A stretch of 64,000 bases of DNA from an uncultured archaeon (GCA_964342815.1 CAYFHS010000021.1:1-64000); one strand, 5' to 3'. Positions 17,328 to 63,940 are shown, counted from the stretch's first letter. Notes: generated by a model from the sequence alone, not told the origin. A program made the numbers and translations.

Positions 17328-17409
17328 AAACTAAGTTGCGATTTACCGCGATATACACTGCCGGTTTCCAAAGGTGCTTTGAATATCATATGATAAATTG
17401 GAGAATACC

Positions 17410-19878
17410 ATGACCGAAGAGGATCGAAAAAACGTCAAATTGAAGATATCGGGCATGACCTGTGCCATGTGCTCCAAGGCCGTTGATAAGGCTCTGTCCG
17501 GTCTGGAAGGTGTTCAGAACGTAAATGTAAACCTGGGGACCGAAACCGCCAGTTTGGAGTACGACCCGGGCAAAGTCAATGTGGCGGCCATTGAAAAATC
17601 AGTGAAGGATGCCGGTTACAGTGTCGTAAACAGTAAGACGACCATCAAGATCAGCGGCATGACCTGTGTCATGTGCGTCAAGGCCATCGAGAAAGCAGTC
17701 GGCGAGCTGCCCGGGGTAACGGAAGTGAACGTCAATCTCACAGCAGAAAAAGCCTCTGTTTCATACAATTCAGTACTTACGAAAATTCAAGATATGAAGA
17801 GAGCGGTTGAGGGAGCCGGTTACAAATATCTGGGAGTGGTTGGCGAGGATGCCGTGGATGTAGAGAAGGAAATGAGGGAATCTGAACTGAAATGGAAGAT
17901 GATAAGGTTCATAGTGGGATTTGCCCTGGCCGCTCCCATGATGCTTCTTATGTATCTGATGAAACTCGATATAATTATGATAAAACCTCCCGTTCCACTG
18001 GGTTACATATATCTGATTATAACGACTCCGGCATTCATTTTTGTCAGCTACCCGATATTTGTGGGAGCATTCAAGGCATTGAAGAACAAAAATCTCGATA
18101 TGAACGTCATGTATTCCATGGGGATCGGTGTCGCCTACGTATCCAGTATACTTGGAACCTTCGAGCTTGTTCTCACAAAGAATTTCATGTTCTATGATAC
18201 GGCGTTAATGCTTGCCGGCTTTCTGATGCTGGGTAGGTTCCTGGAGTCCAGGGCTAAGGGACGTACCTCGGAAGCAATAAAGAAACTCATGGGTCTGAGG
18301 CCCAAGACCGCCACTGTTCTCCGGGGCGGCAATGAGGTCGAGATAGATATTGATGAGGTGAAGGTAGGCGACATAGTAATAATAAAGCCCGGAGAAAAGG
18401 TCCCTGTGGACGGTGTGGTGGTCAAGGGAGGGAGCTATGTTGATGAATCCATGATAACGGGCGAGCCCATTCCTCCGCTGAGGACGATAGGAAATAATGT
18501 TATCGGCGGGACATTGAACAAAAATAGTGTTCTGAGAGCGAAGGCGGGAAAGGTGGGCAGCGAAACTATGCTCGCTCAGATAATACAATTGGTAGAGGAC
18601 GCTCAAGGGTCGAAACCTCCCGTTCAAAGGCTTGCGGACAGGGTGGTTACCTTTTTCATTCCTGTCATTCTCGCCATTGCGGTAATATCCTTCATTGCGT
18701 GGTTCGTGGTTGCGGACGAGTCGCTTCTTTTTTCCCTTACGGTTCTAATCTCCATACTTGTAGTGGCGTGTCCCTGCGCACTGGGTCTCGCAACGCCAAC
18801 AGCCGTAACGGTGGGAATCGGCAGAGGAGCCGAACTGGGTATATTGATCAAGAACGGCGAGGCACTCCAGGTCTCGGAAAAGCTCACTTCCATACTTTTC
18901 GATAAGACCGGGACTCTCACACAGGGAAAACCCGAGGTCACGGATATCATAGCCATGGGCATGGATGAAAAAGAATTAATCATGGTAGCCGCCAGCGTTG
19001 AGAGGAACTCCCAGCATCCTCTGGGGGATGCCGTGGTGAAAAAGGCAGAGGACCGCAAGATAAAATTGAGAGAGGTTTTCGATTTCGATACCTTCGGCGG
19101 CAAGGGAATTTCAGCAAAATTCGACGAAAAGGAAATTATCATTGGAAATAGAACGCTTTTCCAGGAGAGGAACATCAGCTACAAAAAAGAGACGAAAAAA
19201 ATACTTGGTCTTGAGAACGAAGGAAAGACCGTGATATTGGTCGCACTTGAGAGTAAATTATGCGGTATTATCGCCATCGCGGACACGTTGAAGAAAACCA
19301 CCAAGGATGCCATAAGGGAACTAATGGGCATGAAATTCAAGGTCTATATGATCACCGGCGACAATAAAAGGACTGCGAATGCTATCGCAAAACAGATAGG
19401 CATCAAGAATGTCCTGGCGGAGGTTTTACCCCAGGATAAAGCGAGAGAGGTTCGGAATCTTCAGAAAAAAGGTGAGATAGTTGCCTTTGTTGGCGATGGG
19501 ATAAATGACGCGCCTGCCCTGGCGCAGGCCAATGTTGGTATCGCCATGGGCGGCGGGACCGACGTTGCCATGGAGAGCGGAGATATAGTGCTGATAAAGG
19601 ATGAGCTAATGGATGCGGTTTCGGGAATTCGGCTGAGCAAGAAGGTGATGGGGCGTATAAAACAAAACCTTTTTTGGGCCTTTGCCTACAATACTGCCCT
19701 TGTTCCGCTGGCGGCAGGAGGTTTGCACCTGCTTTTTGGCATTACCTTTCCTCCGGAACTGGCTGGCGGCGCCATGGCAATGAGCAGTGTGACGGTGGTA
19801 ACACTATCGCTGATGTTGAAAAAATACGTTCCCCCTTCGGCTTCATCAAGAGAAGAGCGCAGTAATAAATTGAGTTGA
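17410..19878 (+). CDS. copA: Cu(I)-exporting P1B-type ATPase
   Basis: Two HMA domains (GMTCAMC, GMTCVMC), TGE, CPC, DKTGT, HP, GDGIND, YN and MAMSS motifs. Confidence 0.97.
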   Translation: MTEEDRKNVKLKISGMTCAMCSKAVDKALSGLEGVQNVNVNLGTETASLEYDPGKVNVAAIEKSVKDAGYSVVNSKTTIKISGMTCVMCVKAIEKAVGELPGVTEVNVNLTAEKASVSYNSVLTKIQDMKRAVEGAGYKYLGVVGEDAVDVEKEMRESELKWKMIRFIVGFALAAPMMLLMYLMKLDIIMIKPPVPLGYIYLIITTPAFIFVSYPIFVGAFKALKNKNLDMNVMYSMGIGVAYVSSILGTFELVLTKNFMFYDTALMLAGFLMLGRFLESRAKGRTSEAIKKLMGLRPKTATVLRGGNEVEIDIDEVKVGDIVIIKPGEKVPVDGVVVKGGSYVDESMITGEPIPPLRTIGNNVIGGTLNKNSVLRAKAGKVGSETMLAQIIQLVEDAQGSKPPVQRLADRVVTFFIPVILAIAVISFIAWFVVADESLLFSLTVLISILVVACPCALGLATPTAVTVGIGRGAELGILIKNGEALQVSEKLTSILFDKTGTLTQGKPEVTDIIAMGMDEKELIMVAASVERNSQHPLGDAVVKKAEDRKIKLREVFDFDTFGGKGISAKFDEKEIIIGNRTLFQERNISYKKETKKILGLENEGKTVILVALESKLCGIIAIADTLKKTTKDAIRELMGMKFKVYMITGDNKRTANAIAKQIGIKNVLAEVLPQDKAREVRNLQKKGEIVAFVGDGINDAPALAQANVGIAMGGGTDVAMESGDIVLIKDELMDAVSGIRLSKKVMGRIKQNLFWAFAYNTALVPLAAGGLHLLFGITFPPELAGGAMAMSSVTVVTLSLMLKKYVPPSASSREERSNKLS

Positions 19879-19885
19879 TACATCC

Positions 19886-21661
19886 ATGAAATGGAAAATT
19901 ATTCTATTACATATGGTACTGATCGGCGCAAGCATAGGTCTTACTGGTTGTTTGAATCTGATGGATCAGGGTGCCAATACAGGGGGGGATGAGAAATACG
20001 AGATGATGGAGGGCATGGTAGTCACGGAATCGGGATACTCCGGGGACCCGCAGAACGGCAATGAACCATCGCAGCAAACATTGGAGCTAGAACTGATGGA
20101 AGGAATGCTGACCGAGATAAGTTTTACGCTGAGCTGGACCGATGACGAACCCGAATCCGATCCTGATGAATTCAAGCTGGAGGTCAGTGGAAATGTTGGG
20201 GGCAGCGAAAAGTCCTTTTCCACCGCCAGCTCTTCTGGAGAGCTCGAGATACTGGTGAGCATCGATGGTTTTTCTATAGAGACTTATGACGGAGATCCAA
20301 GCCTATTGCTGGGCAGTTCCTGGAAAGTAACAGTGACCGTGCTTTCCTGTGGTTCGAAGCCCCTGCTGCCCATTGGCCCAGGAATCTTTCTCAATGATCC
20401 CGATGAAGGGAATGCATGGGACCTTTCAGTGGGGAACCGGCATATTATAAAAATGTCCGGAGATAAACTGAATAAAGCTCCGGATTTCACCATAACGGAC
20501 ACCGACGGAAACAAGGTTTCCTTGTCGGGTTTCTCTGGAAAAATAATCATCCTGGACCTGATGATGGACTGCCCGACGTGTGAAGAACAGATCGATCATC
20601 TCAAGGATCTACAAAAGAAGATGAGAGATCAGATAATCATTATTTCCGTTGATATCGATCCGAGCGATTCCGTGGAAGACGTTAAACGGATAAAGGAAAA
20701 ACACAAGGCCGATTGGATATTTGCGAAAGATACCGATGATCTTCTGGGTAAGTATAGAGTAACCGGCATGCGGAAACTTATTGTGATAGACCAGGATGGA
20801 ATTCCAACATTTACCTCTGACGGTGTTGTGAATTCAGAAAAGTTAGTAGAAAAGGTAAATGGTGCCATAGAAGGGCAGGTCGGGATCATGGTCGGCATAT
20901 CGTCCAGTATTTTTCTCATTGCCTTTATAACGGGTATTACTGCCTTTTTTGCTCCATGCGCTTTCCCTATGCTGCCCGGATATATTACCTATTACGTCAC
21001 AATAGACGAAAAGAACGGAAAGGATGAATCGTCCCCAGATCAAAGGACGAAGTGGGATATTTTATCAAAAGGGCTTTTTACGGGGGCGGTGACTGCATTG
21101 GGCATTGGATCTATTTATATCATCTTTGGACTGCTTCTGTCGATATTCGGAATTTCGATAATGTTCGCCATGAGCTATCTCGCTCCGATAATCGGAGTTC
21201 TCGTTATCCTGATCGGATTAATATTCGTTATGGGTTACCACGATTATATCCAAATATATTTATACCGGGCGAAAAGGGCTGTTGGTCTGGAATCTCTCGG
21301 AAATAAATTGGATCTGGGAAAGAGATTCAAGTTCCGGGATAGGAAGAAAACTGGATACAGCGGTCTTTTCTATTATGGTATGGGTTACGGAGCGGCGTCA
21401 ACCGGATGTCACGGTATCGCCTTCATCTCCATCGTTCTGGTCGGTCTCGCATCAAACGGATTTGTGGGCTCAATCACCACCACACTGCTATGGATACTGG
21501 GAATGGTGATGATCATGATATTGGTAACCGTTATTCTAGCATTTGCCAGGACGGGCTTCATATCGTTCATAACAAAGAATATGGGAAAGATCAACAGGAT
21601 CACGGGAGCCTTTCTGGTCCTCGCCGGAATTGTGATATTGATCTATGAATACACGGTCTGA
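19886..21661 (+). CDS. Fusion: exported N-terminal domain + thioredoxin-like redoxin + CcdA/DsbD transmembrane domain
   Basis: Lipoprotein-like signal (LTGC), KAPDFTITDTDG...DCPTC redoxin domain, and CcdA motifs FFAPCAFPMLP and STGCHG across six TM helices. Confidence 0.85.
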   Translation: MKWKIILLHMVLIGASIGLTGCLNLMDQGANTGGDEKYEMMEGMVVTESGYSGDPQNGNEPSQQTLELELMEGMLTEISFTLSWTDDEPESDPDEFKLEVSGNVGGSEKSFSTASSSGELEILVSIDGFSIETYDGDPSLLLGSSWKVTVTVLSCGSKPLLPIGPGIFLNDPDEGNAWDLSVGNRHIIKMSGDKLNKAPDFTITDTDGNKVSLSGFSGKIIILDLMMDCPTCEEQIDHLKDLQKKMRDQIIIISVDIDPSDSVEDVKRIKEKHKADWIFAKDTDDLLGKYRVTGMRKLIVIDQDGIPTFTSDGVVNSEKLVEKVNGAIEGQVGIMVGISSSIFLIAFITGITAFFAPCAFPMLPGYITYYVTIDEKNGKDESSPDQRTKWDILSKGLFTGAVTALGIGSIYIIFGLLLSIFGISIMFAMSYLAPIIGVLVILIGLIFVMGYHDYIQIYLYRAKRAVGLESLGNKLDLGKRFKFRDRKKTGYSGLFYYGMGYGAASTGCHGIAFISIVLVGLASNGFVGSITTTLLWILGMVMIMILVTVILAFARTGFISFITKNMGKINRITGAFLVLAGIVILIYEYTV

Positions 21662-26057: not shown

Positions 26058-28805
26058 TTAATCATACTCCCAATCGTCATCATTCTGATAATCACCATGT
26101 TCCCAATCGCCATCATTCTGATAATCACCGTGTTCCCAATCGTCATCACCGTAATACGCATCATCGTAATCATCTTCATCGAATTCCTCATCATAATAAT
26201 CCTCATCAAAGTAATCGAATTCTTCACCTCTTTCGTCTTGCGCATGGGCTTTATTTGATAAGTCGCGACGTCTGGGATGCGGGGCGTATCGTTGATTTCT
26301 TTCTCTTTCCCTTTCTTCAAAATATTTTCGCTCCGATTTTGACAGGTTTAGTTTTTCCCCCTTCACTTTCCCCTTTCTTTTCTTTTTGTAAAAGAACCCA
26401 AGATATGCGCCTATTATCCCCAAAAATACTATACCGCCAAATAAGATAAAATCTTTAATAAAATCGGGAAATCTTGCACTTTTGGTGATTTTTTTGTCAT
26501 CCTTTGTATCCTCCTCTTCAGAGACCAAAATGTTCCAGCTTATGTTTTTCGACAATCCCGAATCTTCATTGGTTATCTTCAATCTAACAAAATGATCACC
26601 CGACCCCAGGATCGGATAGGTCAGCGTGGATATTCCGGTGGCATAACTCTCGTTGTCCACGTACCAAATGTATGACGAATTACCCTCGCTTTCCACATAC
26701 AGAACAGCAACCTCGTTTTCTTTTACATGCACATTTCCATCTTCGGGATAGGAGAAGCTTATTATTGGAAATTCGGGCTCAACGGGATCTTCTTTAAGCT
26801 GAAGGATCATGCTCACATTATTGCTGTGAGGACTCTCGCCGACAATATTCGTCGCAGTAACATAATAATAATATGTACCTTTGAAGACAGTTGGATCCCG
26901 ATAGATGGTCATAATGGAATTGACCTTTGCGACCCTCACCTCAGTCCCCGGGGACGAACCCCGATAGATGTTATATTCTAAAATTGGATAGCCGCCGTCA
27001 TCTTCAGGTATTTCCCAGGAAATATCCACGTAACCTTTACCCAGTGTCGCACTAAGATTGAGTGGGGAGGTTGGGACACTTTGGGGGACGATCTTTACAA
27101 TTAGGCTCGAGTCCCCTTCCCACAAGGAATTGACTGCGGTTACGGCGTAATAATAAATGACGCCGTTTCTAACCGAAGTGTCATTATACATAAGAGTGGT
27201 GGGATCAGCCGAACTAAGATTGATCAGATCATCCGAGCTGTTCCCCCTGTAAATGTTATATGAGGTCAAATTCAATCCACCGTCATTCCCTGTTTCATCC
27301 CAGGTCAGATTAACATATCCGTTGCCGGCTTCTGCTCGAATCATTCCGGGAGGTTCCGGAGGTCCCCGGGGGTTTTCAACAATTATATTACTGGGTTCGG
27401 ACTCCCCTAGTGGATTTAGAGCAGTTACAAAAAAATAATAGCTTATACCGTTTATAACAGTGGTATCGTTGTGCGAGATAGTGAACCCTATTTCCGAATC
27501 AAAATACGTTTCATTACCGGGACTGGTTCCTCTGTAGATCTTGTATCCCATTAAAACGGAGCCGCCATCGTCCTCCGGCGCTTCCCAGGATAGCTCCACA
27601 AAACCATTTCCCGTGTTCGCTTCAAGGTTTTGGGGTGGGGATGGTGTTGTAACATCTCTCATTGGTGTTGTTGCAACTCCTATGCTCGGTTCGGACTCGC
27701 CCAGCGAATTTACCGCAGTAACTATATGATAATAAGTGATCCCATTGGTTAGACCGGTATCGTTGTATGAGGTATTATCGGGGCTGGCAGAATCGAAATA
27801 GACCTCGCCCCCGTACTCGGTTCCTCTGAATATCCTGTATTCGGTTATGGCCAATCCTCCGTCATGGTCCGGTGCTTCCCAGGATAGCTGGACATAACGA
27901 TCACCCCCTTCCCCCACTAGGTTTCTTGGCAATTTCGGACGCCCCAGCGGTAATTCGGATACCTCGTTACTGGAATTTGACTCCCCCACGGTATTGATGG
28001 CAGTCACATAATAGTAGTAATTCACACCGTTCATAACAGTTGTATCATTGTATGAGAATGAAGTCCCGCTTACACTATCATATAGTATCTCTCCACCCGA
28101 GCTGGTTCCCCTGTAGATGGAATATTCAGTTATGGAAGCGTTCCCGTCGCTGGCCGAAGCTTCCCAAGATAGCTGAACAAAGCCATCGCCGGAACTGGAA
28201 ATCAGATTTTGAGGCGGTGTGGCTATGAACTGAGGCAGTGTGACTGAAATGAAATAAGAATACTGATCTCTGACCCAAAGGTTTAGATTATTATTGGGCG
28301 ACTGCTTCGAGTGAGCATTGAAAGCGTAAAGGTCGAATGTCAAGGTGTCCGCACCGGTACTATTTCCCGTGACCGACCACTGGAATGTTTCAGTATACGG
28401 GGGGAGCAGGTCGTATCTTTCCTGTGAGGGGTTCTGGATTATCACTTTCCCGTTAGAACTGGTCAGGTTAACTATTAACAGGTCTATGGTGTACCAGTGA
28501 TTTATATGCCCTCCCCCTCCATCTAAGTTGATTACCATTTTCACAATATTTGTTTCATTCAATTCAAAGGTGGTTGGCAGGACCGAAGAAGTATCTGTGG
28601 GCGTTAGATTGGTGTACTCGTAATATCGATTCCCGTGGCATCCAAGACACATGTCTACGGATGCCCTGTTCGAATCTCCCAGTATCGCAAGATCGATAGC
28701 GAGCAATGCGATCAATATCCCGCATATAACCACTATGGGTGGAGCAGCTCTTAAGCCTTTTTCTCTCCGGACTCCATGACCCGATAGACTGACTTTCATT
28801 TTCAA
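26058..28805 (-). CDS. Surface protein: N-terminal CxxCH, five fibronectin type III repeats, C-terminal TM and acidic repeat tail
   Basis: CLGCH at 28635-28649. Five repeats of P..P.NL....G.G.V.LSW..P..DGG....Y.IYRG, then a TM helix followed by KKKRKGK. Confidence 0.85.
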   Translation of the reverse strand: MKMKVSLSGHGVRREKGLRAAPPIVVICGILIALLAIDLAILGDSNRASVDMCLGCHGNRYYEYTNLTPTDTSSVLPTTFELNETNIVKMVINLDGGGGHINHWYTIDLLIVNLTSSNGKVIIQNPSQERYDLLPPYTETFQWSVTGNSTGADTLTFDLYAFNAHSKQSPNNNLNLWVRDQYSYFISVTLPQFIATPPQNLISSSGDGFVQLSWEASASDGNASITEYSIYRGTSSGGEILYDSVSGTSFSYNDTTVMNGVNYYYYVTAINTVGESNSSNEVSELPLGRPKLPRNLVGEGGDRYVQLSWEAPDHDGGLAITEYRIFRGTEYGGEVYFDSASPDNTSYNDTGLTNGITYYHIVTAVNSLGESEPSIGVATTPMRDVTTPSPPQNLEANTGNGFVELSWEAPEDDGGSVLMGYKIYRGTSPGNETYFDSEIGFTISHNDTTVINGISYYFFVTALNPLGESEPSNIIVENPRGPPEPPGMIRAEAGNGYVNLTWDETGNDGGLNLTSYNIYRGNSSDDLINLSSADPTTLMYNDTSVRNGVIYYYAVTAVNSLWEGDSSLIVKIVPQSVPTSPLNLSATLGKGYVDISWEIPEDDGGYPILEYNIYRGSSPGTEVRVAKVNSIMTIYRDPTVFKGTYYYYVTATNIVGESPHSNNVSMILQLKEDPVEPEFPIISFSYPEDGNVHVKENEVAVLYVESEGNSSYIWYVDNESYATGISTLTYPILGSGDHFVRLKITNEDSGLSKNISWNILVSEEEDTKDDKKITKSARFPDFIKDFILFGGIVFLGIIGAYLGFFYKKKRKGKVKGEKLNLSKSERKYFEERERERNQRYAPHPRRRDLSNKAHAQDERGEEFDYFDEDYYDEEFDEDDYDDAYYGDDDWEHGDYQNDGDWEHGDYQNDDDWEYD
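26068..26150. repeat. 33-nt tandem repeat (about 2.5 copies) encoding DWEHGDYQND(G/D)
   Basis: tcccaatcg(t/c)catcattctgataatcacc(a/g)tgt at 26068-26100 and 26101-26133, with a partial third copy from 26134. Confidence 0.9.
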
Positions 28806-35184: not shown

Positions 35185-35673
35185 ATGAACGTAAAAGAGA
35201 TATTTGACCCGAATTACAAGTGCACCTGCGTCCTCTGCTGTTTTTTCAATCTTAAACCTATCCATGTATCGGTATACCGGTATCTTGTCAAATACGGCGA
35301 AAAGAATGCGCAGGAAATTGGGAATTTCCTGGGCAGGGACCGAAGTACCGCATACCGGGTGCTGACCAAGCTGTGTTCTTTCGATATTCTTTACAAGAAA
35401 ACCGAATTCATCCCCCGGGGCGGGTACTATCATGTCTATGCTGCCAAGGACCCAATAGAGCTTATGGAGGATTTGAGAATTAACATCACAAAGTGGTACG
35501 AGCGAATGATATCTCTGATAGAAGAAGCGGAGAAAACCACGGGAACTCTTAAGGGCTTGACCCACCATTTCAATAAAAGAGCCATCTTCAGCGAGACCGT
35601 TAGGGAAATGATACGGGAGGAAAATACCCAAACTGTTGAGCAGGAGCAGGCCGACAAAGAAACTGCCTCCTGA
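35185..35673 (+). CDS. TrmB-like winged-helix transcriptional regulator
   Basis: HTH region NAQEIGNFLGRDRSTAYRVLTKL and wing RGGYYHVY. It is divergent from the ccm operon. Confidence 0.8.
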   Translation: MNVKEIFDPNYKCTCVLCCFFNLKPIHVSVYRYLVKYGEKNAQEIGNFLGRDRSTAYRVLTKLCSFDILYKKTEFIPRGGYYHVYAAKDPIELMEDLRINITKWYERMISLIEEAEKTTGTLKGLTHHFNKRAIFSETVREMIREENTQTVEQEQADKETAS

Positions 35674-36954: not shown

Positions 36955-37359
36955 ATGTTGAAAGGAAATATCGCAACTTCGAATATATCGGATGTCTTCG
37001 AGAAGTACTATTGGTCCGAGATTGACGAAAAGACGATTTCCCAAAATGATGTTTCGGAACCTCTTCTTGACCTTATCGATCATGTCGAGAAAGCCATCAA
37101 CGTTGGTTTGGAAAAACGGGGAGTATGTGCTTATGCTGGCTCCGTCCTTCTTTTCTTGGTGCTCGAAGGAACCGGCAGGAAATTTTCTTATAACATCGAC
37201 GAAACCAACGACCTCTATAAGGAGGGAAAGATAATGGCAGGCAATCTCTGGGATGCTCTTGTTGATGGCTTGACCTCAGTGAATATCAAGAAACAGGTGA
37301 GTGGGTCCCTCTGGAACGACTATTTGCGACGCCATCCCAAAAAAAGGTCGGGAGAATGA
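36955..37359 (+). CDS. Hypothetical protein, first gene of the cupredoxin operon
   Basis: 134-aa ORF with a purine-rich RBS (GGGAGAGG) and a 6-nt gap to the next gene. No family recognised. Confidence 0.65.
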   Translation: MLKGNIATSNISDVFEKYYWSEIDEKTISQNDVSEPLLDLIDHVEKAINVGLEKRGVCAYAGSVLLFLVLEGTGRKFSYNIDETNDLYKEGKIMAGNLWDALVDGLTSVNIKKQVSGSLWNDYLRRHPKKRSGE

Positions 37360-37365
37360 TCGACC

Positions 37366-39351
37366 ATGGCCAAGATCAACAAATTCAGAAAGGGAAATAT
37401 CATATTCGTCCTCATCATCTTAGTGCTACTTTTAGCTCCTCTGGGCATATCATATGTCATTATCACGGGAAAAGCTCAGAAGGTCCTCCGAGCTTTCGAA
37501 TTATCCGATGAAGACGGCGAAGCCAGGATCATCGATATTACGGCATCCCAGTTCCAATTCAATCCCAATGTTATTCGTGTTGGCCTCGGCGAGAAGATCA
37601 TTTTCAGGGTGACTTCCACTGATGTGATGCATGGATTTTATATAGACGGGAAAGATGTGTTCGCAGAGGTTCCACCTGGAGAGACCATTGAAGTAGGGCC
37701 TTTACAATTCAACCAGCCGGGCAAGTTCAAGATACGTTGTGCCATTACCTGCGGGCCATTACATCCATTCATGATCGCTGACCTGATCGTGGAACCTGAT
37801 TATACCCTATTCGTTTTTGTCGCTCTCACTGTGTTAACTGCCATAACTGTACTCCTGTACGTTAAAACCAAGGGTCGGGAAGACAGGATACTGGGCATCA
37901 ATCGCAAAGTAAAAATAGATGTCCTTAAAAGGGTTAGAATTATTGGTCCCTTATTGAAAAGGGTCCTCCAGTGGAGAGGGATACATTTTCTGCTTATTTT
38001 ACCTAATCTTCTGTTTTTCATGTTAATATTTGCAACAGGTTTTTTTGGAAACCCAACTGGGAATAAGAACTTTTCCATTGCGGTTGTTTGGATCCTTTGG
38101 TTCGCACTTATCGAATTTATGATTATATTTGCAAGTCGGACCTGGTGCACCATGTGTCCCCTACCCGCCGTGGGTGAGTGGATCGCCAGAAGACGTTTTG
38201 TTGGTGTTCATAAGGTAAGGAAATGGTTTTCATTGAACAAAAAATGGCCAAAATCACTTGACAATATGTGGATCGGTGCGCTCTCATTCCTTGTTATGTC
38301 TCTGATGATACTTTGGCTCGTCACGAGGCCAGTGATATCAGCCATTCTTTTTTTAATACTCATAATTATGGGGACCGTACTATACTTGATAGTACCAGCA
38401 AGGCACTTCTGTAGAAGCATCTGTCCTGCCGGTGCATATATCGGTTATCACTCTAATGAATCGATCTTCGAGGTACGCTCAAGAAGCAAAGCCATATGCG
38501 ACGCTCATCCGGGTAAAGAATGTATCAGAGGAAGTCCCAAAGGCTATGGTTGTCCGTGGAAACTTTACCCTGGAGGCAACCAAGAGAATACCTATTGCGG
38601 CCAGTGCTACGAATGTCTTAAAAACTGTCCCCTTGACAATATGACCATAAAAGCCAGGATGATCGGGGAGGACCTCCCGGAAAAGGCGATTAGGACCAAG
38701 AACAACTATGACGAATCATGGATGGGTTTTATCAGATTCTCTCTCGTTATTTTCTACACACTTGCGTTCTTCGGGCCCTACTGGTTCTTAAAGGACTGGG
38801 GAAATATGGGCAATCCTTATGGCGCCAATCTGGCTTCTATCAATCTTCTCATGCCGACAATGGGTGGGTTCCAGAAATGGCTCAATTGGGCACTATTGGT
38901 TTCTTTTGTCGCCTTGATTGGTTTCCCTGCGATCTTTTACGGATTTTCCTGGCTGGCCAGAAAAGCAGCAAAAGTGAAGGATATCCCGACCAAGGATATG
39001 TTCGGCGCTTACAGCTATGTCCTCGCCCCATTCGGTTTAACGCTATGGATAGGTTTCGCCATTACGCTTATTTTGGTCAATTGGGCTTATCCTGTAAATG
39101 CTTTTTCTGATCCCTTCGGTTGGGGTTGGAACCTTTTTGGATTCAAGTTCGATTGGTATCCCATCTTCCCAAACTTGATTCCCTTTATCCAATTACCCCT
39201 GATTCTATTGGGTCTTGCCCTTGCGATCAACTTCACTTACATCATTTCGCTCAAGTTCTTTAATGGAAGGAAACCCGCTTTCAGGTCCACCGCAGTTATG
39301 ACTGTCCTTTATACTGGTTCCGCGTTGTTATTCGTTTACTTAATAGGGTGA
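37366..39351 (+). CDS. CuA-type cupredoxin fused to a NapH/NosR-like membrane polyferredoxin
   Basis: CuA ligand pattern DVMHGF...CAITCGPLHPFM. The membrane part has WCTMCP, HFCRSICP and CGQCYECLKNCP across many TM helices. Confidence 0.82.
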   Translation: MAKINKFRKGNIIFVLIILVLLLAPLGISYVIITGKAQKVLRAFELSDEDGEARIIDITASQFQFNPNVIRVGLGEKIIFRVTSTDVMHGFYIDGKDVFAEVPPGETIEVGPLQFNQPGKFKIRCAITCGPLHPFMIADLIVEPDYTLFVFVALTVLTAITVLLYVKTKGREDRILGINRKVKIDVLKRVRIIGPLLKRVLQWRGIHFLLILPNLLFFMLIFATGFFGNPTGNKNFSIAVVWILWFALIEFMIIFASRTWCTMCPLPAVGEWIARRRFVGVHKVRKWFSLNKKWPKSLDNMWIGALSFLVMSLMILWLVTRPVISAILFLILIIMGTVLYLIVPARHFCRSICPAGAYIGYHSNESIFEVRSRSKAICDAHPGKECIRGSPKGYGCPWKLYPGGNQENTYCGQCYECLKNCPLDNMTIKARMIGEDLPEKAIRTKNNYDESWMGFIRFSLVIFYTLAFFGPYWFLKDWGNMGNPYGANLASINLLMPTMGGFQKWLNWALLVSFVALIGFPAIFYGFSWLARKAAKVKDIPTKDMFGAYSYVLAPFGLTLWIGFAITLILVNWAYPVNAFSDPFGWGWNLFGFKFDWYPIFPNLIPFIQLPLILLGLALAINFTYIISLKFFNGRKPAFRSTAVMTVLYTGSALLFVYLIG

Positions 39352-39357
39352 TATAGC

Positions 39358-39774
39358 ATGGTAAAGAGATCCAGCAAAATCAGATGGGAAGTCATCGCCG
39401 GTGCGATCGTGCTCCTTACGCTTGCCATGTTTCTTGTGCCGAGATTGGACGACATGGTAATGGGAAAGGATACAAATACCATACTTATTCGTGCGTCGAT
39501 CAAAGAAGCTGGAGGCTTTGACAAACGCTCCATCGAAGTGAAAGCAGGTGAGAAGATCACATTCGATATATACAGCATGGATATGACTCACAGTTTTATT
39601 ATCAATGACGAGAGGCTGGAGTCGAATGTTAATACAGGGCCGATACACACGGGAGAACACAAGACAGTAGAGGTAGTTTTTGACGAACCGGGAGAGTATA
39701 TCTTCAGATGCGGAGTCTACTGCAGCGATCTTCACGGTGCCATGACGGGCAAGATAACCGTGCTAGAGAAATGA
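39358..39774 (+). CDS. Membrane-anchored CuA-type cupredoxin
   Basis: N-terminal TM helix, MTHSF and RCGVYCSDLHGAM (C-x3-C-x3-H-x2-M). Confidence 0.85.
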   Translation: MVKRSSKIRWEVIAGAIVLLTLAMFLVPRLDDMVMGKDTNTILIRASIKEAGGFDKRSIEVKAGEKITFDIYSMDMTHSFIINDERLESNVNTGPIHTGEHKTVEVVFDEPGEYIFRCGVYCSDLHGAMTGKITVLEK

Positions 39775-40409
39775 GAGAAATGGATGAGAAACATATGAGT
39801 GAATATGGGAAAAAAGGCATAACAGTCACCCTCATGGTGATCGCAATACTTGTGATTCTATCTCTTGTTAGCGGATGTGTTTTATTAAACCAAATAAACG
39901 AAAACGATGAGGGGCTCCCGGTCATCCGGAAAGCCTCCGATTTCACTCTGATCAATCAGGACAATAAAAGCGTAACATTGAGCAAACTTCAAGGCAAGAC
40001 AGTGCTTATGTGCTTCATTTACATCCGGTGTGAGATGCCTATGATGTGTCCTCGAACGACCCAAAACTTCAGGTTGATCCAGGATATCCTGCCGGAAAAT
40101 GCCAGAACGGAAACCTCACTTATAACAATCACATTTGATCCCGATTACGATACCCCTGAAAAGTTGAGGGAATACGGCGAGGCGTACGGTGCCAACTTCA
40201 CTAGTTGGCAGTTCCTCACCGGAGACAATGAATCCATCGGCAAGGTGATGGACGACTACAATGTCTATTACAATAAAACTGAAAACGAAACCTACAGTCA
40301 TACAATGCTCGCAGTCCTTATCGATAAGGATGGGGACGTGAGAAAGGAATATTTTGGCTCCATGTGGAAAGCCAAAACGGTAACAGCTGATATTGTAGAA
40401 GTGATGTAA
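39771..40409 (+). CDS. SCO1/SenC-family copper chaperone
   Basis: ASDFTLINQD, FIYIRCEMPMMCP, TFDPDYDTPEKL, WQFLTG and YSHT. ATG 39771 overlaps the upstream TGA. Confidence 0.9.
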   Translation: MREMDEKHMSEYGKKGITVTLMVIAILVILSLVSGCVLLNQINENDEGLPVIRKASDFTLINQDNKSVTLSKLQGKTVLMCFIYIRCEMPMMCPRTTQNFRLIQDILPENARTETSLITITFDPDYDTPEKLREYGEAYGANFTSWQFLTGDNESIGKVMDDYNVYYNKTENETYSHTMLAVLIDKDGDVRKEYFGSMWKAKTVTADIVEVM

Positions 40410-40841
40410 ATGACTATTACAAAGAAGATTATACAGGGAGTTAAATTCCCGCCAATCATGTTCTTTATTATAATTCTCTTAATATATTCCGGTTTCAACG
40501 GATATGTGAAGTTTTTTGCAGAAGGGACCAACTGGGAGGACGGCGAGATCATTCATATGAATGCTACGCAGTTCGAGTTTAGTCCAAATAATTTCACAGT
40601 GGTCAAAGACACTTTGGTCGTTTTGAATATTTACTCCATGGGCGAAATAGAGTCCGGGTTCACAATGCACGGTTTTTATCTGGAAGACTACGAGATCTCA
40701 AAGATACTGCCCTTCGGGGAAACCACTACAATTAGATTCAAGGCCGACAAGGTGGGGACCTTTAATTTCATGTGTACAGTAACTTGCGGTTCAGGACATT
40801 TGGAAATGTGGGGGCAGCTCATAGTCGTGGAGGACCTGTAA
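40410..40841 (+). CDS. Membrane-anchored CuA-type cupredoxin (COX2/NosZ C-terminal-like)
   Basis: N-terminal TM helix, MHGFYL and MCTVTCGSGHLEM. Confidence 0.85.
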   Translation: MTITKKIIQGVKFPPIMFFIIILLIYSGFNGYVKFFAEGTNWEDGEIIHMNATQFEFSPNNFTVVKDTLVVLNIYSMGEIESGFTMHGFYLEDYEISKILPFGETTTIRFKADKVGTFNFMCTVTCGSGHLEMWGQLIVVEDL

Positions 40842-58513: not shown

Positions 58514-60934
58514 TCATGTTTCCTTCTTCTTGTGATAATTCGCAAGATATACGCCTAGCACCATGAGCACGGCCATGCCACCGTAGAGCACTGAGTTCCT
58601 CATCCAAGCAGGAAACGGGGAATCCCCACTCTGCTCTTTAGGTTCGATGTTGGCATCATCTTCTATTGCCGTGATGTTCCAGGTTATCTCAATGAAACGA
58701 CCGGAAATCTCATTGGTTATCCGCGCCCTGATCGTACGTGTTCCGACGTTTACTACTGGATAGGCCAATGTAAATATCCCGGTTGCATAAGGTTTGTTAT
58801 CCTCGTACCAGTTAATAGATACATTTCCGACCGTTTCTACATATAATACCACAAGTTCATCTTTGTTAACTAGCAAAGTCTTGCTCCAAGGATGGTGCGA
58901 GATTATCTCGGGAAGACCGCGTTCAGTAGAACCACTGCTCACCTCTTGGGTCGTCACATTCACTTCATCACTCGGGGCGCTTTCTCCAAGCAAACTGACA
59001 GCAGTGACATAATAATATAAATTATTGTAATACGATATGTTTGGATCCCCATCTCGGTATTGAGTCAAAATTGAATTGACTGATGAATAATAGGTTTCGG
59101 CACCTGAAAAAGGACCGCGATAGATATTATATATAAAAATAGCCAAACCTCCGTCATCCGTTGGAGTTTCCCATGAGAGATCAACATATCCGTGACTGAG
59201 TATCCCGCTCAGGTTTAGGGGCGCCGAAGGTTCTCTTTGATAAATTACGTTTAGCTCCTTACTGGGTTCGCTCCCCCCCAAAGAGTTGATTGCAATAACA
59301 TGATAGTAATAGGACACTCCATTTATAACGGAGGTATCGTTGTAAGATAGCGTTAATCCACTGACCATGGAAAAGTCAATAAAATTGCCTGATCCATCCC
59401 CTCTATATATCCTAAAAGCAGTTATTATAGCTCCCCCGTCGTTATCCGGGGCTTTCCAGATCAACATGACATACTCCTTGCCCACACTAGCCTGAACTTC
59501 CTTCGGAGGTTCCGGGGGACCCCGTGGGTTTGTGATATTGATATCACTCGGCTCTGATTCTCCTACGGGGTTGACCGCGGTAACATAGTAATAATAAATT
59601 TCTCCGTTGATAATAGAGGTATCGTTGTATGAGGTTGTGAAACCCAGTGCGGAATCAAAGAGAGTTTCATCACCAGAATTAATACCCCGGTATATATTAT
59701 ATCCCATTATAACGGTACCACCGTCATCGGATGGAATCCCCCAGTATAAGTGGACAAAACCGTTTCCTGCAATGGCCTCGAAATTTCCCGGGGCTGAAGG
59801 ATTTGTAATATCTCTTTCAGGTGATGCAAACAGCTCGATACTGGGATAGGATTCACCAACCGAATTAACAGCGGTAATATAGTAGTAATATTTTATCCCG
59901 TTTGTAACTGATGTATCGTTGTATGAGGATTTATTAATGTCCTGGGAAATATGGTACGTCTCGTTGCCAGAGGAGTTACCTCGGTATATATTGTAGAACA
60001 TTATTGGTGATCCGCCGTCGTCAATCGATGTTTCCCAGTCCAGTTCAACATAACTATTTCCACTAGTTGCCTTTGGATTCAAAGGCGGCGCTGGACGCCC
60101 ATATGGAGTTACAAAGACCTCAGCACTCTTTTCGGATTCACCAATATAATTTGTTGCGATTATAGAATAATAATAGGTCTCTCCATTGGTAACCAAGGTA
60201 TCATTATATGATGTCGTTGTGCCGCTCAACATGTCATAATAAGTTTCACTGCCGGGATCTCCACCACGATATATTCGGTATTCCATTATGGGTCGATCTC
60301 CGTCATCGTTCGGTTCATTCCATGATAACAATATATAGCCATCTCCCGGGATTGCTGTGACATTTAAGGGCTGGGAGGGAGGTTCATATGGGACTTTAAC
60401 CGAAGTGATGTAGCTGTAAGTATCAATGGCAACGCTATTTTGATGTGGATCAAGGGCGTAGAGGCTAATGGTCAAGGTGTCCTCACCAGGGAGAACCCCT
60501 GTAACAGACCAATTAAAAATCACTTTTTCGTCCGGAAAAAGATTATTTTTTTCTTGCTGAGGGTTGGGAATGTCCAACTTATTATCATTACTGTTCAAGG
60601 TCACTAGTAGCGAGGATATCTCGAAATACGACGAAGGTCCGGGGTCTCCCGTGTTTATTATCTCAACAGCTATCTTAATGACAGTTGAATTCTCGGTAAA
60701 TTCTGTAGGCAGAACGGATAAGGGATCGTTGGGGAGAAGATTACTAAACTCCTTAAAACGGTTGCCATGACACCCTTCACACATATTATCCGAGGCTCTA
60801 TGGGAATCACCCATAATACCAAAGTCTATCACAAGTAGAACTATCAATACCATACTCATCGCGACAATAGGTTGCAGGGCGCGGGTTTTTTCAAATAGTT
60901 TACCGTTTTTCCCCTTAATAGAGCCTCTGAACAT
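58514..60934 (-). CDS. Surface protein: N-terminal CxxCH, five FN3 repeats, C-terminal TM (paralog of 26058..28805)
   Basis: CEGCH at 60767-60781 in the context GDSHRASDNMCEGCHGNRF (paralog: GDSNRASVDMCLGCHGNRY), five FN3 repeats, and a shared YATGI.TL.YP domain. Confidence 0.87.
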   Translation of the reverse strand: MFRGSIKGKNGKLFEKTRALQPIVAMSMVLIVLLVIDFGIMGDSHRASDNMCEGCHGNRFKEFSNLLPNDPLSVLPTEFTENSTVIKIAVEIINTGDPGPSSYFEISSLLVTLNSNDNKLDIPNPQQEKNNLFPDEKVIFNWSVTGVLPGEDTLTISLYALDPHQNSVAIDTYSYITSVKVPYEPPSQPLNVTAIPGDGYILLSWNEPNDDGDRPIMEYRIYRGGDPGSETYYDMLSGTTTSYNDTLVTNGETYYYSIIATNYIGESEKSAEVFVTPYGRPAPPLNPKATSGNSYVELDWETSIDDGGSPIMFYNIYRGNSSGNETYHISQDINKSSYNDTSVTNGIKYYYYITAVNSVGESYPSIELFASPERDITNPSAPGNFEAIAGNGFVHLYWGIPSDDGGTVIMGYNIYRGINSGDETLFDSALGFTTSYNDTSIINGEIYYYYVTAVNPVGESEPSDINITNPRGPPEPPKEVQASVGKEYVMLIWKAPDNDGGAIITAFRIYRGDGSGNFIDFSMVSGLTLSYNDTSVINGVSYYYHVIAINSLGGSEPSKELNVIYQREPSAPLNLSGILSHGYVDLSWETPTDDGGLAIFIYNIYRGPFSGAETYYSSVNSILTQYRDGDPNISYYNNLYYYVTAVSLLGESAPSDEVNVTTQEVSSGSTERGLPEIISHHPWSKTLLVNKDELVVLYVETVGNVSINWYEDNKPYATGIFTLAYPVVNVGTRTIRARITNEISGRFIEITWNITAIEDDANIEPKEQSGDSPFPAWMRNSVLYGGMAVLMVLGVYLANYHKKKET

Positions 60935-61026
60935 AGAACATCCTCTTTTCTTCCTGTCAATTGTTTTTTACTAAATTCCCTAAAATAATAGGTAGAAATC
61001 GTTTTTTATATTTCCAGGGCTACAGT

Positions 61027-62079
61027 CTACCCGGCCGGGTTGTTATGGTCAACCATTTTCATTGGCACCAATTTTCTATTCGTATTGGGGGTGAGCCCAA
61101 CCAACTCGTCGCCCAGGGTGAGGAGGAGCACACCGACCATGGCCATCTGTATGAGATAGAAATCGTTCAACATGCGTCCACTGATAGCTATGAGCAAAAG
61201 TCCGGGTACGAGGTACTTTCTCCGTCCCTTGCTGCGTACGAGGAGAAATAAGGTGAGAAGGTAACACCATAGGGCCCCAATATAGATCGGTAGGAATAGG
61301 TAAAACTGGAAACCCAATGACCACATGGTCACCAGGGGTAAGATGTCGGAGCGTAGGAATGCGAACATCAACATACCGCCGACCATTATGGTCGGAAGGA
61401 TCAGATCGACTAAGCGAGGCCTCCGCCAGAACGCCAGCAGGGCCAGGAATGCCGATGCGACAGCGAAGACCTCTCCAATCCCATATACCCCGGTCCTTCC
61501 GGGAAGGGACAAACCCAGATTTGCAAGATCGTTTCCTACGTGTAGGTATAAGGCACTGAGGTATGCGATAAGGAGGAAAAGAAAAAACAGTAGAAGCGCG
61601 ACACGATGAATTTTTTCAGGTGCTTCGGCATCTAATGCTTCATGTTCTTGTAAGAAAAAAATCCTGTGCAACTTCCGCATCACAAGGGTAAACAGGAGAA
61701 GAATCGCCGTGATGCTGCCCAATAACACTATCAGCTCAATCCACGACCCGATGACCGAGACACTAATGAGAACCGTGACCCATATTAACAAGAACAGTGA
61801 TAGTCTTTTTTCCTTGTTCCAAAAGAGATAAGCTATAATGAGAACGACCGATATGGATGTTATGAAGGCTAAATTGTAAGCGATGTTTCCCATGAAGACC
61901 ATTATGGCAGTACCGCTCCTCTTCATCCACCAAGGAAAGAGGTCCGCCATCCTGTTGAGACCCCGAAGGATGATGAACTCTACTAGGGCAGAGATCATCA
62001 AAAGCTTTACAAATGCCGGAAGCAGATTAGCATATCGAGTTCGAGCCGATCCCGCATCCAGGTAGATCTTGGGCCTCAT
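61027..62079 (-). CDS. Polytopic membrane protein of unknown family
   Basis: About 10 hydrophobic helices. It overlaps the end of the TorD-like gene; the true start is uncertain. Confidence 0.7.
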   Translation of the reverse strand: MRPKIYLDAGSARTRYANLLPAFVKLLMISALVEFIILRGLNRMADLFPWWMKRSGTAIMVFMGNIAYNLAFITSISVVLIIAYLFWNKEKRLSLFLLIWVTVLISVSVIGSWIELIVLLGSITAILLLFTLVMRKLHRIFFLQEHEALDAEAPEKIHRVALLLFFLFLLIAYLSALYLHVGNDLANLGLSLPGRTGVYGIGEVFAVASAFLALLAFWRRPRLVDLILPTIMVGGMLMFAFLRSDILPLVTMWSLGFQFYLFLPIYIGALWCYLLTLFLLVRSKGRRKYLVPGLLLIAISGRMLNDFYLIQMAMVGVLLLTLGDELVGLTPNTNRKLVPMKMVDHNNPAG

Positions 62080-62740
62080 CTATTGGCACCTCTATGATTT
62101 CGTCGATTCGGGCCCCCAGATATGAAGCGTCCCGTGTGACTATCTTATGAACGAGACCCACCAACAGGGGATAGATCGGGAAATTCGTCTTGTCTCTTAC
62201 AAGGCGGTGGTGGACGCCGATCCACCTACCGAGGTGGTCGGTGAGGAACTTGGTTTGTGCATCGCGGCATATTTTGGCCTCCTCCAGCATCTGGTTGGAT
62301 TGGGCGATGGATTCTTTAAGACACAGGAAGGACATGAACTCGAGTTCGCTGCTAAGGTTATCCTGGCGCTCCCCCTTTGGTTGAACGCCGAAAGCTAAAA
62401 AGAAACCCGAGATATCAGCAAGTTCATGTGTGACCCTGGATGAGGGTACGTAAGAGCATTCGTAAGGGGGGGCTTCTCCCTTGGAAAAGAGGCGGGTATA
62501 TTCTTGGTTCATTTCCCTTACTGTCGGGGCAATAGCGCGGATTGCCTCTTTTATGCACGCTAAATCATCGTCCAATTCCACGTAATCCGAGGTTTCGGAA
62601 GTGACTCGGCCGAGATCCCGCAGCAAGGTGTTATCAAGAACCTGATCGGAACTGGAGAAAATCCTGGCAAGGAGACCGTACACCTGGGACCTGGTGAAAG
62701 AGATCTCGCATTCATGTATATGATCATCTATTTCCGTCAT
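62027..62740 (-). CDS. TorD/DmsD-family molybdoenzyme chaperone
   Basis: EYTRLF...PPYECSY, DISGFF.AFG, DNLSSELEFMSFL and FLTDHLGRW. Confidence 0.9.
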   Translation of the reverse strand: MTEIDDHIHECEISFTRSQVYGLLARIFSSSDQVLDNTLLRDLGRVTSETSDYVELDDDLACIKEAIRAIAPTVREMNQEYTRLFSKGEAPPYECSYVPSSRVTHELADISGFFLAFGVQPKGERQDNLSSELEFMSFLCLKESIAQSNQMLEEAKICRDAQTKFLTDHLGRWIGVHHRLVRDKTNFPIYPLLVGLVHKIVTRDASYLGARIDEIIEVPIDEAQDLPGCGIGSNSIC

Positions 62741-62746
62741 CTTCCT

Positions 62747-63940
62747 TCAATCTCCTTTTCTCTTTTTTGCAGGCCTAACCTTATTTTTCGTAGATTTCTT
62801 TTGAGAGTTTCCCACCTTCTTCTTTTTACCTTCCCCGGTTTTCTCGGGTTGCTCCCCTTCTTTTAAATCGGGTTTATCCTCAGTTGCCCTTGCCTCCCCT
62901 TCTTCCTTGGAGACCTTCCCTTTTTTCTTTCGCTTCAGTCCAAATCCAATGAGGCCGATGATAGCCAATAGAGCGATCACATACAATATCAGAATACAGA
63001 TCTGAGCAACATATGGGGGATTTTCTTCTTTGGTCTTACCGCGGGTCTTGAGGGTGACCCAGCTACTGACCGACTTCCGCGCTCCCACATCTTGGCTCTC
63101 CCCGTCCCAAACGGCGAAGGCGAGGATGTTATCCTCCTTGATCACAGTATCGTCTTGGTCACCGGTGTCCAAGGCCCTGGAGATCACAACGCTCCATGTA
63201 CCGTTCTTCCATACTCCGCGGCCAACCGCGTTCTGGGTCGCTTGGGTTGTGATAGTGGAATAACCCTCGGCAATGGCATCCTCCACAGAAGTGACCTTCA
63301 ATGGATCGGAGAATGGATTTCCCACGTGATAACCGGGCAGGTAGAGACTTGCGTTCCCGGGGAAGTCCTCGGGAACCCGATAAGGAGGTTCTCCCACAGC
63401 ATAGGGATAATAATCCACCCAGAAGTTAGGGAATGAGTCCTCGAGATCCTGGAACCCTTCTTCGAGATCCCTCTGCCAATCCGACTTCCACTGAATAATA
63501 TGCATTCTTGTGGTACCGGTTGCGGCAGATCCCATACAGACGAATGGGATGGAGCCCTTGTCTGCGATCTGGATGGCAAGAGCGTCACGGAACTCCTGAT
63601 TCTTGGTTGTCTTGTTGTTCTTGACCGCGTCATTCCAGGTGATCCGAAAAGCGATGTGGGTACCGTTGTTAAGGGACTTGATACGAACGGACTCCACTGA
63701 TGGCAAGAGCCGTTTTGGATTGGTACTTGTCTGGCCTGAAATAGGTACTGTAATGGATGTGGCTTCATCCCATAAACTTGATTCTGGATCTGTGGTCGGG
63801 AGATCCTCTTCCGTATAGACCGATCTCAGTTCAGTTCCAGAGTCCGAGGTTCCCGGGACAATACCCTGATATTGGAGCACCGTGAGGACGATAGATACAG
63901 TGATAACAAACATAATAACGGTTTTTTTATTCTTGATCAT
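62747..63940 (-). CDS. Type II DMSO-reductase-family heme b (gamma) subunit, EbdC/PcrC-like, with C-terminal TM anchor
   Basis: V.IKSLNNG..IAFRITWND, FRDALAIQ, FVCMG, QWK.DWQ, G.W..GTWSVV..R.L and AFAVWDG....G.RK. RBS GGAGGTGA lies upstream. Confidence 0.88.
   Translation of the reverse strand: MIKNKKTVIMFVITVSIVLTVLQYQGIVPGTSDSGTELRSVYTEEDLPTTDPESSLWDEATSITVPISGQTSTNPKRLLPSVESVRIKSLNNGTHIAFRITWNDAVKNNKTTKNQEFRDALAIQIADKGSIPFVCMGSAATGTTRMHIIQWKSDWQRDLEEGFQDLEDSFPNFWVDYYPYAVGEPPYRVPEDFPGNASLYLPGYHVGNPFSDPLKVTSVEDAIAEGYSTITTQATQNAVGRGVWKNGTWSVVISRALDTGDQDDTVIKEDNILAFAVWDGESQDVGARKSVSSWVTLKTRGKTKEENPPYVAQICILILYVIALLAIIGLIGFGLKRKKKGKVSKEEGEARATEDKPDLKEGEQPEKTGEGKKKKVGNSQKKSTKNKVRPAKKRKGD

Follow-up and report, generated by a model that had tools for sequence, protein, structure and literature searches.

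A 64,000-nucleotide stretch of DNA from an uncultured archaeon (GCA_964342815.1, contig CAYFHS010000021.1, positions 1-64000; hereafter the window, part of a 4.35 Mb assembly that is 88.9% complete) carries at 36955-40841 five closely packed plus-strand open reading frames (ORFs), which together encode three membrane-anchored cupredoxin domains with the ligands of a CuA site, one of them fused to a NapH-like polyferredoxin, as well as a copper chaperone of the SCO type and a small cytoplasmic protein. In textbooks CuA belongs to cytochrome oxidase and nitrous oxide (N2O) reductase, whereas in this and hundreds of other genomes it is carried by a NapH-like membrane protein in place of an oxidase or NosZ. 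We propose that this module is an outward conduit that supplies electrons to exported oxidoreductases, an explanation to which, taken as a whole, we assign a probability of roughly 0.6. The module itself is real and conserved, while the function given to it here is one predicted from genes.

Predicted copper and iron-sulfur sites of the operon

The first gene, P0001 (36955..37359, +; 134 amino acids, aa), encodes a small cytoplasmic five-helix protein and is, across a 6-nt gap, translationally coupled to P0002 (37366..39351, +; 661 aa), in which a CuA cupredoxin head is fused to the NapH-like polyferredoxin. These are followed by an anchored CuA cupredoxin, P0003 (39358..39774, +; 138 aa), the SCO1/SenC-type copper chaperone P0004 (39771..40409, +; the ORF opens at 39708 and the ATG at 39771 is the probable start) and another anchored CuA cupredoxin, P0005 (40410..40841, +; 143 aa). 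The intergenic distances from P0001 to P0005 are, in order, 6, 6, -4 and 0 nt, where the -4 nt at the P0003/P0004 junction is an ATGA overlap.

A sequence-only reading of this stretch had noted three separate anchored domains with the full CuA pattern, and the ligands were indeed found in P0002, P0003 and P0005, each of which consists of a membrane anchor followed by a cupredoxin domain with H...C-x3-C-x3-H-x2-M. All five side-chain ligands are present in each protein, namely H89, C125, C129, H133 and M136 in P0002 (the H89 codon, 37630-37632, +, lies upstream of the CuA loop CAITCGPLHPFM at 37738..37773, +, residues C125-M136), H78, C118, C122, H126 and M129 in P0003, and H87, C122, C126, H130 and M133 in P0005. 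Across the 35,795 six-frame ORFs of the whole 4.35 Mb genome, C-x3-C-x3-H-x2-M occurs four times; three of the occurrences are these proteins, inside 3.3 kb, and the fourth is a low-complexity frame. Every ligand of P0003 and P0005 pairs with the CuA domain of the Thermus thermophilus ba3 oxidase (phmmer, E ~1e-8), and in superpositions of the AlphaFold model the P0002 head matches 1ehk_B with a Z of 14.4 (root mean square deviation 1.2 Å over 93 residues) and the NosZ structure 2iwf_A with a Z of 13.9. A Foldseek search with the P0002 model returned CuA domains at E 7e-7, the best solved relatives being the ba3 oxidase CuA domain and the NosZ C-terminal domain. The models TIGR04246 and NF052460 match the three cupredoxins only over their C-terminal ~100 positions. 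In a 13-sequence alignment of the P0002 family, H89 and C129 are invariant and C125, H133 and M136 nearly so. From these ligand sets, we infer that the P0002 head, P0003 and P0005 hold copper.

The best bacterial BLAST matches of P0003 are the N-terminal domains of 336-420 aa CuA-cytochrome c proteins, and those of P0005 are the ~155-aa split "head" cupredoxins of bacterial loci; by these matches P0003 is the orthologue of the bacterial CuA-cytochrome c subunit, minus the haem domain, and P0005 a free-standing paralogue of the head domain type. A sister genome, a Thermoplasmatota metagenome-assembled genome (MAG) whose collection name refers to the eastern tropical North Pacific, has a P0002 that is 97% identical, and its P0005 orthologue (L021:7599-8033) reads CTVICGSGHLNTQ, with the axial Met replaced by Thr and a Gln next to it. 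Because the axial Met is lost in this orthologue, constraint on the third copper site may have relaxed, or its tuning may differ.

P0002 is composed of a transmembrane (TM) anchor, an outer CuA cupredoxin (48-144), a TM helix, a NapH-like core (~200-445) and five extra TM helices (448-660), and its AlphaFold 2 (AF2) model has a pLDDT of 92.5 and a pTM of 0.92. The helix order and the positive-inside rule place the CuA head outside and two [4Fe-4S] clusters, as predicted, on the cytoplasmic side. The core contains CxxCP/CxxxCP motifs at C261/C264 and C349/C353 as well as eight further cluster cysteines, C378...C421; WCTMCP (261-265), FCRSICP (349-354), C378/C386/C396 and CGQCYECLKNCP (411-422) are invariant or nearly so among 84 homologues. 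These motifs, together with weak matches to Fer4_5 (21.9 bits for the whole protein, 23.6 bits for the domain alone) and to NapH models, bear out the earlier description of a CuA domain fused to a NapH/NosR-like Fe-S membrane protein. Since the scores are far under the NapH cut-offs (NF007013, 24.9 against 234; TIGR02163, 23.1 against 213), P0002 is classified, on sequence, as a distant branch of the NapH-like polyferredoxins and not as NapH proper. FMN_bind does not match its N-terminal domain, which is a cupredoxin.

The C-terminal five-helix module was found only at the end of proteins in the P0002 family (250 cluster representatives, E <= 1e-3). Pfam returned nothing on this module for four family members at E up to 10, and chance-level matches only for a fifth (Yip1, E 0.1). 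An identity of the membrane part with Caa3_CtaG, raised by a shape match in the ESM Atlas (TM-score 0.72), was discarded, being without sequence support in Pfam; Foldseek and VIA-align searches with the whole P0002 model gave cupredoxin matches only.

The SCO chaperone noted in the same tight operon is likewise probable by family: P0004 matches PF02630 (SCO1-SenC) at 100.7 bits and has a TM or lipobox-like anchor (LVSGC), the motif CEMPMMCP and a conserved distal His (SHT). Its cysteine spacing, here corrected to C-x5-C-P, differs from the canonical CxxxCP and is common to P0004, the sister genome and a Gemmatimonadota locus (L071), whereas the SCO homologue of a module-bearing Heimdall MAG has a canonical CPVACP.

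No COX1 or NosZ propeller had been seen in the window, and a genome-wide check for coxI, nosZ and nirK also found none. COX1 (PF00115) gave 0 matches in the source genome and 0 in the sister genome (93% complete), with a control in which the same search found it in 9 of 14 genomes, all above cut-off; it was not found in the Heimdall carrier genome either. The NosZ propeller was absent from both the window and the rest of the assembly, and neither lactonase-type NosZ (L-NosZ), cytochrome bd nor the multicopper oxidase/NirK-type domain (Cu-oxidase_3) was found in the source assembly. The genome encodes a ccm system, three multihaem cytochromes and three molybdoenzymes. These results support the view that none of the CuA domains of P0002, P0003 and P0005 belongs, as a subunit, to an oxidase or NosZ of this genome.

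Family distribution, gene order and fusions

Surveyed across archaea and bacteria, the gene cluster proved widespread, with relatives of P0002 in at least 373 species genomes. Close relatives occur in Archaeoglobus (including A. fulgidus), Heimdall, Promethearchaeota and Caldarchaeum, and bacterial ones in Anaerolineae, Desulfobacterales, Bacteroidales, Planctomycetota, Gemmatimonadota and others. Among 60 relatives of the source archaeon the module was present in one, the sister genome, and its distribution is thus patchy. Clustering of neighbouring genes was carried out on 85 module loci, 65 of them with a recognisable polyferredoxin. The CuA protein is fused to or adjoins the polyferredoxin in 63 of these 65 loci, at least two CuA proteins are present in 47, and a CuA-cytochrome c fusion in 34. 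The archaeal order is a P0001-like gene, the fused CuA-polyferredoxin and a CuA protein, while the typical bacterial order is a PCYCGC protein, a CuA cupredoxin, in some cases DUF1573 or rubrerythrin, the polyferredoxin, a CuA-cytochrome c fusion and DUF1573, frequently accompanied by a two-component system, a MacB-type ABC transporter, NosL, TlpA/CcdA and a haem-porin. PCYCGC-motif proteins (PF13798) stand directly upstream of the CuA gene in 30 of the 65 loci (bacterial, L024-L100) and DUF1573 is found in 23; both may assist CuA assembly by handling copper or thiols.

Several family members combine the module with further redox domains in a single chain. P0149 contains a CuA-motif cupredoxin, Fer4_5, an inserted GltD-like unit (Fer4_20 and Pyr_redox_2) and the C-terminal TM module, the insertion point lying between the two halves of the cytoplasmic cluster domain. 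Similar GltD-like fusions were seen in the metagenomic relatives P0129, P0159, P0167 and P0173, the last of which also keeps a CuA-motif head. A cytochrome c head replaces the cupredoxin in P0229, other long members add a TlpA domain or a second cupredoxin, and in an Ardenticatenaceae locus the GltD-like proteins have genes of their own, with a dihaem cytochrome c encoded downstream.

The enzymes that adjoin the module vary by lineage. In two Caldarchaeum-type genomes the neighbour is nosZ, and in three bacterial loci (L051 and L061, Planctomycetota; L084, Lindowbacteria) AioA/AioB-like genes, above the TIGR02693 cut-off, and two MauG/CCP-like dihaem genes. We take this latter gene set to resemble the iodate reductase IdrABP1P2 as much as arsenite oxidase.

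Proposed electron route and rival explanations

P0002 would, in our explanation, act as a transmembrane electron conduit of the NapH/NosR type with a CuA head in place of the flavin mononucleotide (FMN) domain. Ferredoxin, a docked flavoprotein or possibly quinol would deliver electrons to the two cytoplasmic [4Fe-4S] clusters, from which they would cross the membrane to the outer CuA head and pass on to the anchored CuA carriers P0003 and P0005, which would reduce whichever exported oxidoreductase the organism has. The SCO protein P0004, along with a nearby CopA-like ATPase and a TlpA-like thioredoxin, would mature the copper sites. The outward direction is proposed because a GltD-like NAD(P)H flavoprotein is fused into the cytoplasmic Fe-S domain of some family members, and the role of general supplier because the adjoining enzyme varies by lineage (NosZ, AioAB/Idr-like, NarGH). 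The sequence-only reading had suggested a stand-alone module leading from quinol to CuA; the stand-alone electron-transfer module with its NapH-like protein stands, while the quinol donor is uncertain and the fusions point to cytoplasmic NAD(P)H or Fe-S donors. Our confidence in the conduit as such is somewhat higher than in the explanation as a whole.

A possible cytoplasmic electron source, and a candidate member of the module, is P0006 (40906..43617, +; 903 aa), which starts 64 nt past P0005 on the same strand and joins a flavin adenine dinucleotide (FAD)-linked 2-hydroxyacid-oxidase domain to an HdrD/GlpC-like domain with 2x[4Fe-4S] and 2xCCG. Its position downstream of the operon is kept in the sister genome only.

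At the other end of the chain, the earlier statement that the terminal partner is unknown must be tempered, as the same contig offers a candidate. In the source archaeon, without an oxidase or NosZ, the most likely acceptor would be an enzyme of the type II dimethyl sulfoxide (DMSO) reductase family, exported by twin-arginine translocation (TAT) and encoded 21 kb downstream of the module in an operon that lies partly inside the window. Its alpha subunit (65113-68688, -, beyond the window; 1191 aa) has a TAT signal (RRGFLK) and scores 279.7 bits with TIGR03479 and 136.8 bits with narG, both below cut-off. The operon further comprises a beta subunit (63953-65116, -, running past the window end; 16 Cys), an EB_dh-family haem-b gamma subunit (62747..63940, -; PF09459 at 82.9 bits) and, after it, a 237-aa protein (62027..62740, -) that is a possible NarJ-like chaperone by position only. 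The sister genome has the same arrangement 24 kb from its module, and at the Heimdall locus an EB_dh protein directly follows the module. This operon is favoured because the trio accompanies the same enzyme class in Methanoperedens. As an assignment, the enzyme with its EB_dh subunit is nonetheless a tentative acceptor, which we would sooner doubt than adopt, the two grounds for the link being the analogy with the Methanoperedens nar operon and the shared contig.

Several points weigh against the route as drawn. Copper content, redox potentials and direction of flow are deduced from genes for every family member, and inside the membrane no cofactor is evident that would link the clusters on the cytoplasmic side to the outer CuA. 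A distance of 21 kb separates the candidate acceptor, on the opposite strand, from the module; BLAST comparison of its alpha, gamma and delta subunits with all module loci found no relatives, and the alpha subunit scores far under the NarG and type II family cut-offs. The link of P0006 to the module is confined to one genus. The adjoining Aio-like enzymes, which oxidise their substrate, would for those lineages be compatible with inward flow, and the absence of an oxidase is bounded by the 88.9% completeness of the source genome.

This last point leaves room for the cupredoxins to be ordinary subunit II or CuA parts, the matching oxidase or NosZ gene falling within the ~11% of the genome that is unassembled. 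COX1 was found in 46 of 50 other genomes that carry the module, and within Desulfobacterales in 15 of 16 carriers compared with 63 of 135 non-carriers (raw counts, not adjusted for relatedness), so that in bacteria the module associates with haem-copper oxidases, and yet it is independent of them. Where COX1 is present it is encoded elsewhere with its own CuA subunit II; the module is not a missing subunit II because the cox operon of Desulfoluna, apart from the module in that genome, has a CuA subunit II of its own. A conserved COX1 neighbour was found in none of the 85 module loci, the gene order around the polyferredoxin being kept independently of oxidases, and beyond the sister genome and the Heimdall carrier, both without COX1, four further carriers are without both COX1 and NosZ. 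An unassembled oxidase or NosZ is thus a very unlikely account of the operon. Somewhat less improbable, but still a long shot, is a copper-homeostasis device, such as a cupric reductase like CcoG, which is itself a NapH-family polyferredoxin, or a copper-handling relay. The operon includes an SCO protein and a CopA-like ATPase lies 17 kb upstream; CopB occurs near the A. fulgidus copy, beside a Met/Gly-rich small protein, NosL and a MacB-type ABC transporter accompany the module in Desulfoluna, 30 of the 65 loci have PCYCGC proteins, and two-component systems occur often. Full CuA ligand sets are, however, electron-transfer sites that need a copper supply themselves, which explains the chaperones, and electron transfer is also what the CuA-cytochrome c and NAD(P)H-flavoprotein fusions and the neighbouring NosZ, Aio-like and Nar enzymes indicate. 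The Pfam and NCBIfam matches of P0002, from which weak ones may have been filtered, included neither FixG_C nor a ccoG model.

The conduit could also run inward, carrying electrons from exported oxidising enzymes or cytochromes through CuA to cytoplasmic acceptors or the quinone pool, an arrangement we hold to be about as improbable as copper homeostasis. NapH-like systems have been proposed to serve oxidases too (PMC8238504). In three loci the module adjoins AioAB-like enzymes, which naturally pass their electrons to cupredoxins or cytochrome c, and in six a rubrerythrin is inserted; the Aio-like set with its two CCP genes, however, fits an electron-consuming reductase of the iodate-reductase kind as well. 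CuA sites are usually near +250 mV, and ferredoxin-type clusters usually far lower, so that inward flow would be uphill, and the NAD(P)H flavoprotein fusion makes sense only with outward flow. Least probable of all is that the membrane polyferredoxin is a redox sensor and not a conduit. A shape search in the ESM Atlas recovered this Fer4_5 membrane domain from Thermodesulfobacteriota and Cyanobacteriota, where it is joined to domains of sigma-54 activators and cyclic nucleotide monophosphate (cNMP)-binding regulators and may be used as a membrane redox sensor. P0002 is without an output domain and is operonic with redox carriers and a copper chaperone, while the flavoprotein and cytochrome c fusions of its family argue for electron throughput.

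If the outward conduit is a general cytoplasm-to-periplasm exporter, it would supply several anaerobic respirations with the quinol-dehydrogenase or electron-input step that they lack, for instance those that use archaeal pNar-type enzymes, certain NosZ or enzymes of the Aio/Idr-like kind, archaea of oxygen-minimum zones included. A bolder extension, which we regard as doubtful, is that the family as a whole provides a haem-free copper and Fe-S route from NAD(P)H or ferredoxin to periplasmic carriers and substitutes for complex III or NapC-type quinol dehydrogenases, with oxidase-free archaea respiring through exported molybdoenzymes and the five-helix module binding a cofactor or giving an aromatic relay that bridges the membrane. 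As constructs, the natural single-chain NAD(P)H-flavoprotein/Fe-S/CuA fusions lend themselves to direct testing.

Neighbouring genes and comparison with known systems

P0001 has no Pfam or NCBIfam match, and a word-indexed search retrieved its sister orthologue only. Its AF2 model is a confident five-helix bundle (pLDDT 90.3), and a P0001-like gene is kept upstream of the fused gene in the Thermoplasmatota sister, Archaeoglobus JdFR and the Heimdall MAG, with 20 invariant residues. An assignment as a TetR C-terminal bundle was rejected on weak atlas feature matches, and one as a Cas10d/Cas11d helical bundle because the best fold match (Z 10.9) does not rise above the noise that helical bundles give. 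Complex prediction runs for P0001 with P0002(165-661) scored 0.65, 0.00 and 0.00, which is evidence neither way.

Upstream of the operon lies a gene for a TrmB-family regulator (35185..35673, +) with an N-terminal CTCVLCC motif. Its link to the module is weak; the cysteine cluster may sense metal or redox state, and a correspondence to the regulator of the A. fulgidus copy was ruled out, the two not being homologous. The 1.3 kb between this gene and P0001 (35674-36954) are AT-rich with long T and A runs, the largest ORF having at most 69 aa. Further upstream, a CopA-like P1B ATPase with two HMA domains (17398..19878, +) is a candidate copper supply for the exported CuA sites, and a thioredoxin (TlpA-like) fusion with AhpC-TSA and Redoxin matches (19886..21661, +) a candidate reductant for the cysteines of CuA and SCO. 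The two genes follow each other directly, 17-19 kb upstream of the module and also upstream of the ccm genes, and with the CuA/SCO operon the pair looks like a maturation island for exported copper and haem proteins. Our preferred reading of the copper genes near the module, PCYCGC and NosL of other loci among them, is that they serve to mature exported CuA sites.

The minus-strand region 58514-63940, continuing to contig position 68688, holds the molybdoenzyme operon followed by genes for a 350-aa membrane protein and an FN3 monohaem protein. The latter (58514-60934, -) has a paralogue at 26058-28805 (-); the two predicted cell-surface proteins are 47% identical, and each has an N-terminal anchor, directly followed by a single CxxCH (MCLGCHG / MCEGCHG), as well as extended arrays of FN3 repeats. 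The ccm locus contains one of them, and the other adjoins the molybdoenzyme operon. Identity of the FN3 monohaem protein with a 668-aa gene upstream of the Archaeoglobus JdFR copy was ruled out, the two being unrelated.

The gain from this window is modest: a fused, SCO-equipped, three-CuA variant in a genome without classical CuA enzymes. The module had been thought to belong to a possibly undescribed redox chain, a suggestion that must be given up, for the same trio was already described from gene content in two genome papers on Methanoperedens (PMC4683180) and A. fulgidus (PMC4543118); in the literature on cupredoxin, polyferredoxin, CuA and PCYCGC we found no description beyond these two and PMC8238504. 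Arshad et al. (2015) reported that the nar operon of Methanoperedens, an anaerobic archaeon, contains the order haem-copper oxidase subunit II (HCO II) - NapH - HCO II (MPEBLZ_02039-02041), that this NapH has 9 TM helices with five additional C-terminal ones, and that the trio adjoins NarGHJ-Orf7, all genes there being highly transcribed, and proposed that it feeds an exported molybdoenzyme (PMC4683180). The operon described here shares this composition of a CuA protein, a NapH-like protein extended by five helices at its C-terminus (residues 448-660 of the model) and a second CuA protein, and across the family CuA is fused or adjacent in 63 of 65 loci. It differs from the Methanoperedens trio in the fusion of the first CuA protein to the NapH-like protein, in its additional genes for the small cytoplasmic P0001, for SCO and for a third CuA protein, and in the place of the candidate molybdoenzyme, which is 21 kb off and not in the same operon.

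A. fulgidus is a strict anaerobe that is not known to have an oxidase. Its copy, AF0141-AF0144, is induced on CO plus sulfate, and homologues in Ferroglobus adjoin nosZ (Hocking et al. 2015, PMC4543118). As here, the P0002 relative (P0065, 43% identical to P0002) is followed by a CuA cupredoxin, and no partner enzyme adjoins the module. The copy is without SCO and without a third cupredoxin, and its upstream small gene encodes not a P0001 homologue but a Met/Gly/Tyr-rich membrane protein. This anchored peptide (L004:9684-9983, the AF0141 position) has a composition that suggests Cu(I) binding.

Meheust et al. (2021, PMC8238504) describe NapH-like proteins with FMN heads as modular devices that transfer electrons across the membrane. 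In NosR, NirI and PceC (RdhC), as in P0002, a redox head on the outside is joined to TM helices that bear two CX3CP motifs and to a 2x[4Fe-4S] domain in the cytoplasm, and these proteins and the P0002 family are alike in their modular use with different exported reductases. The head of NosR, NirI and PceC is an extracytosolic flavinylated FMN-binding domain, whereas that of P0002 is a CuA cupredoxin, and P0002 has in addition the five-helix C-terminal module and scores far below the cut-offs of the NapH models. With subunit II of the ba3/caa3 oxidases (Thermus thermophilus CbaB, 1ehk_B, 2cua), the best solved match, the module shares the cupredoxin fold and full CuA ligand set, and bacterial copies carry a caa3-like CuA-cytochrome c fusion; unlike that subunit, the CuA proteins here have no subunit I partner and are operonic with a polyferredoxin instead. 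Particular to the present copy are the fusion of head and polyferredoxin, the third CuA protein, the SCO with its odd cysteine spacing, P0001 and the adjoining FAD/HdrD-like dehydrogenase.

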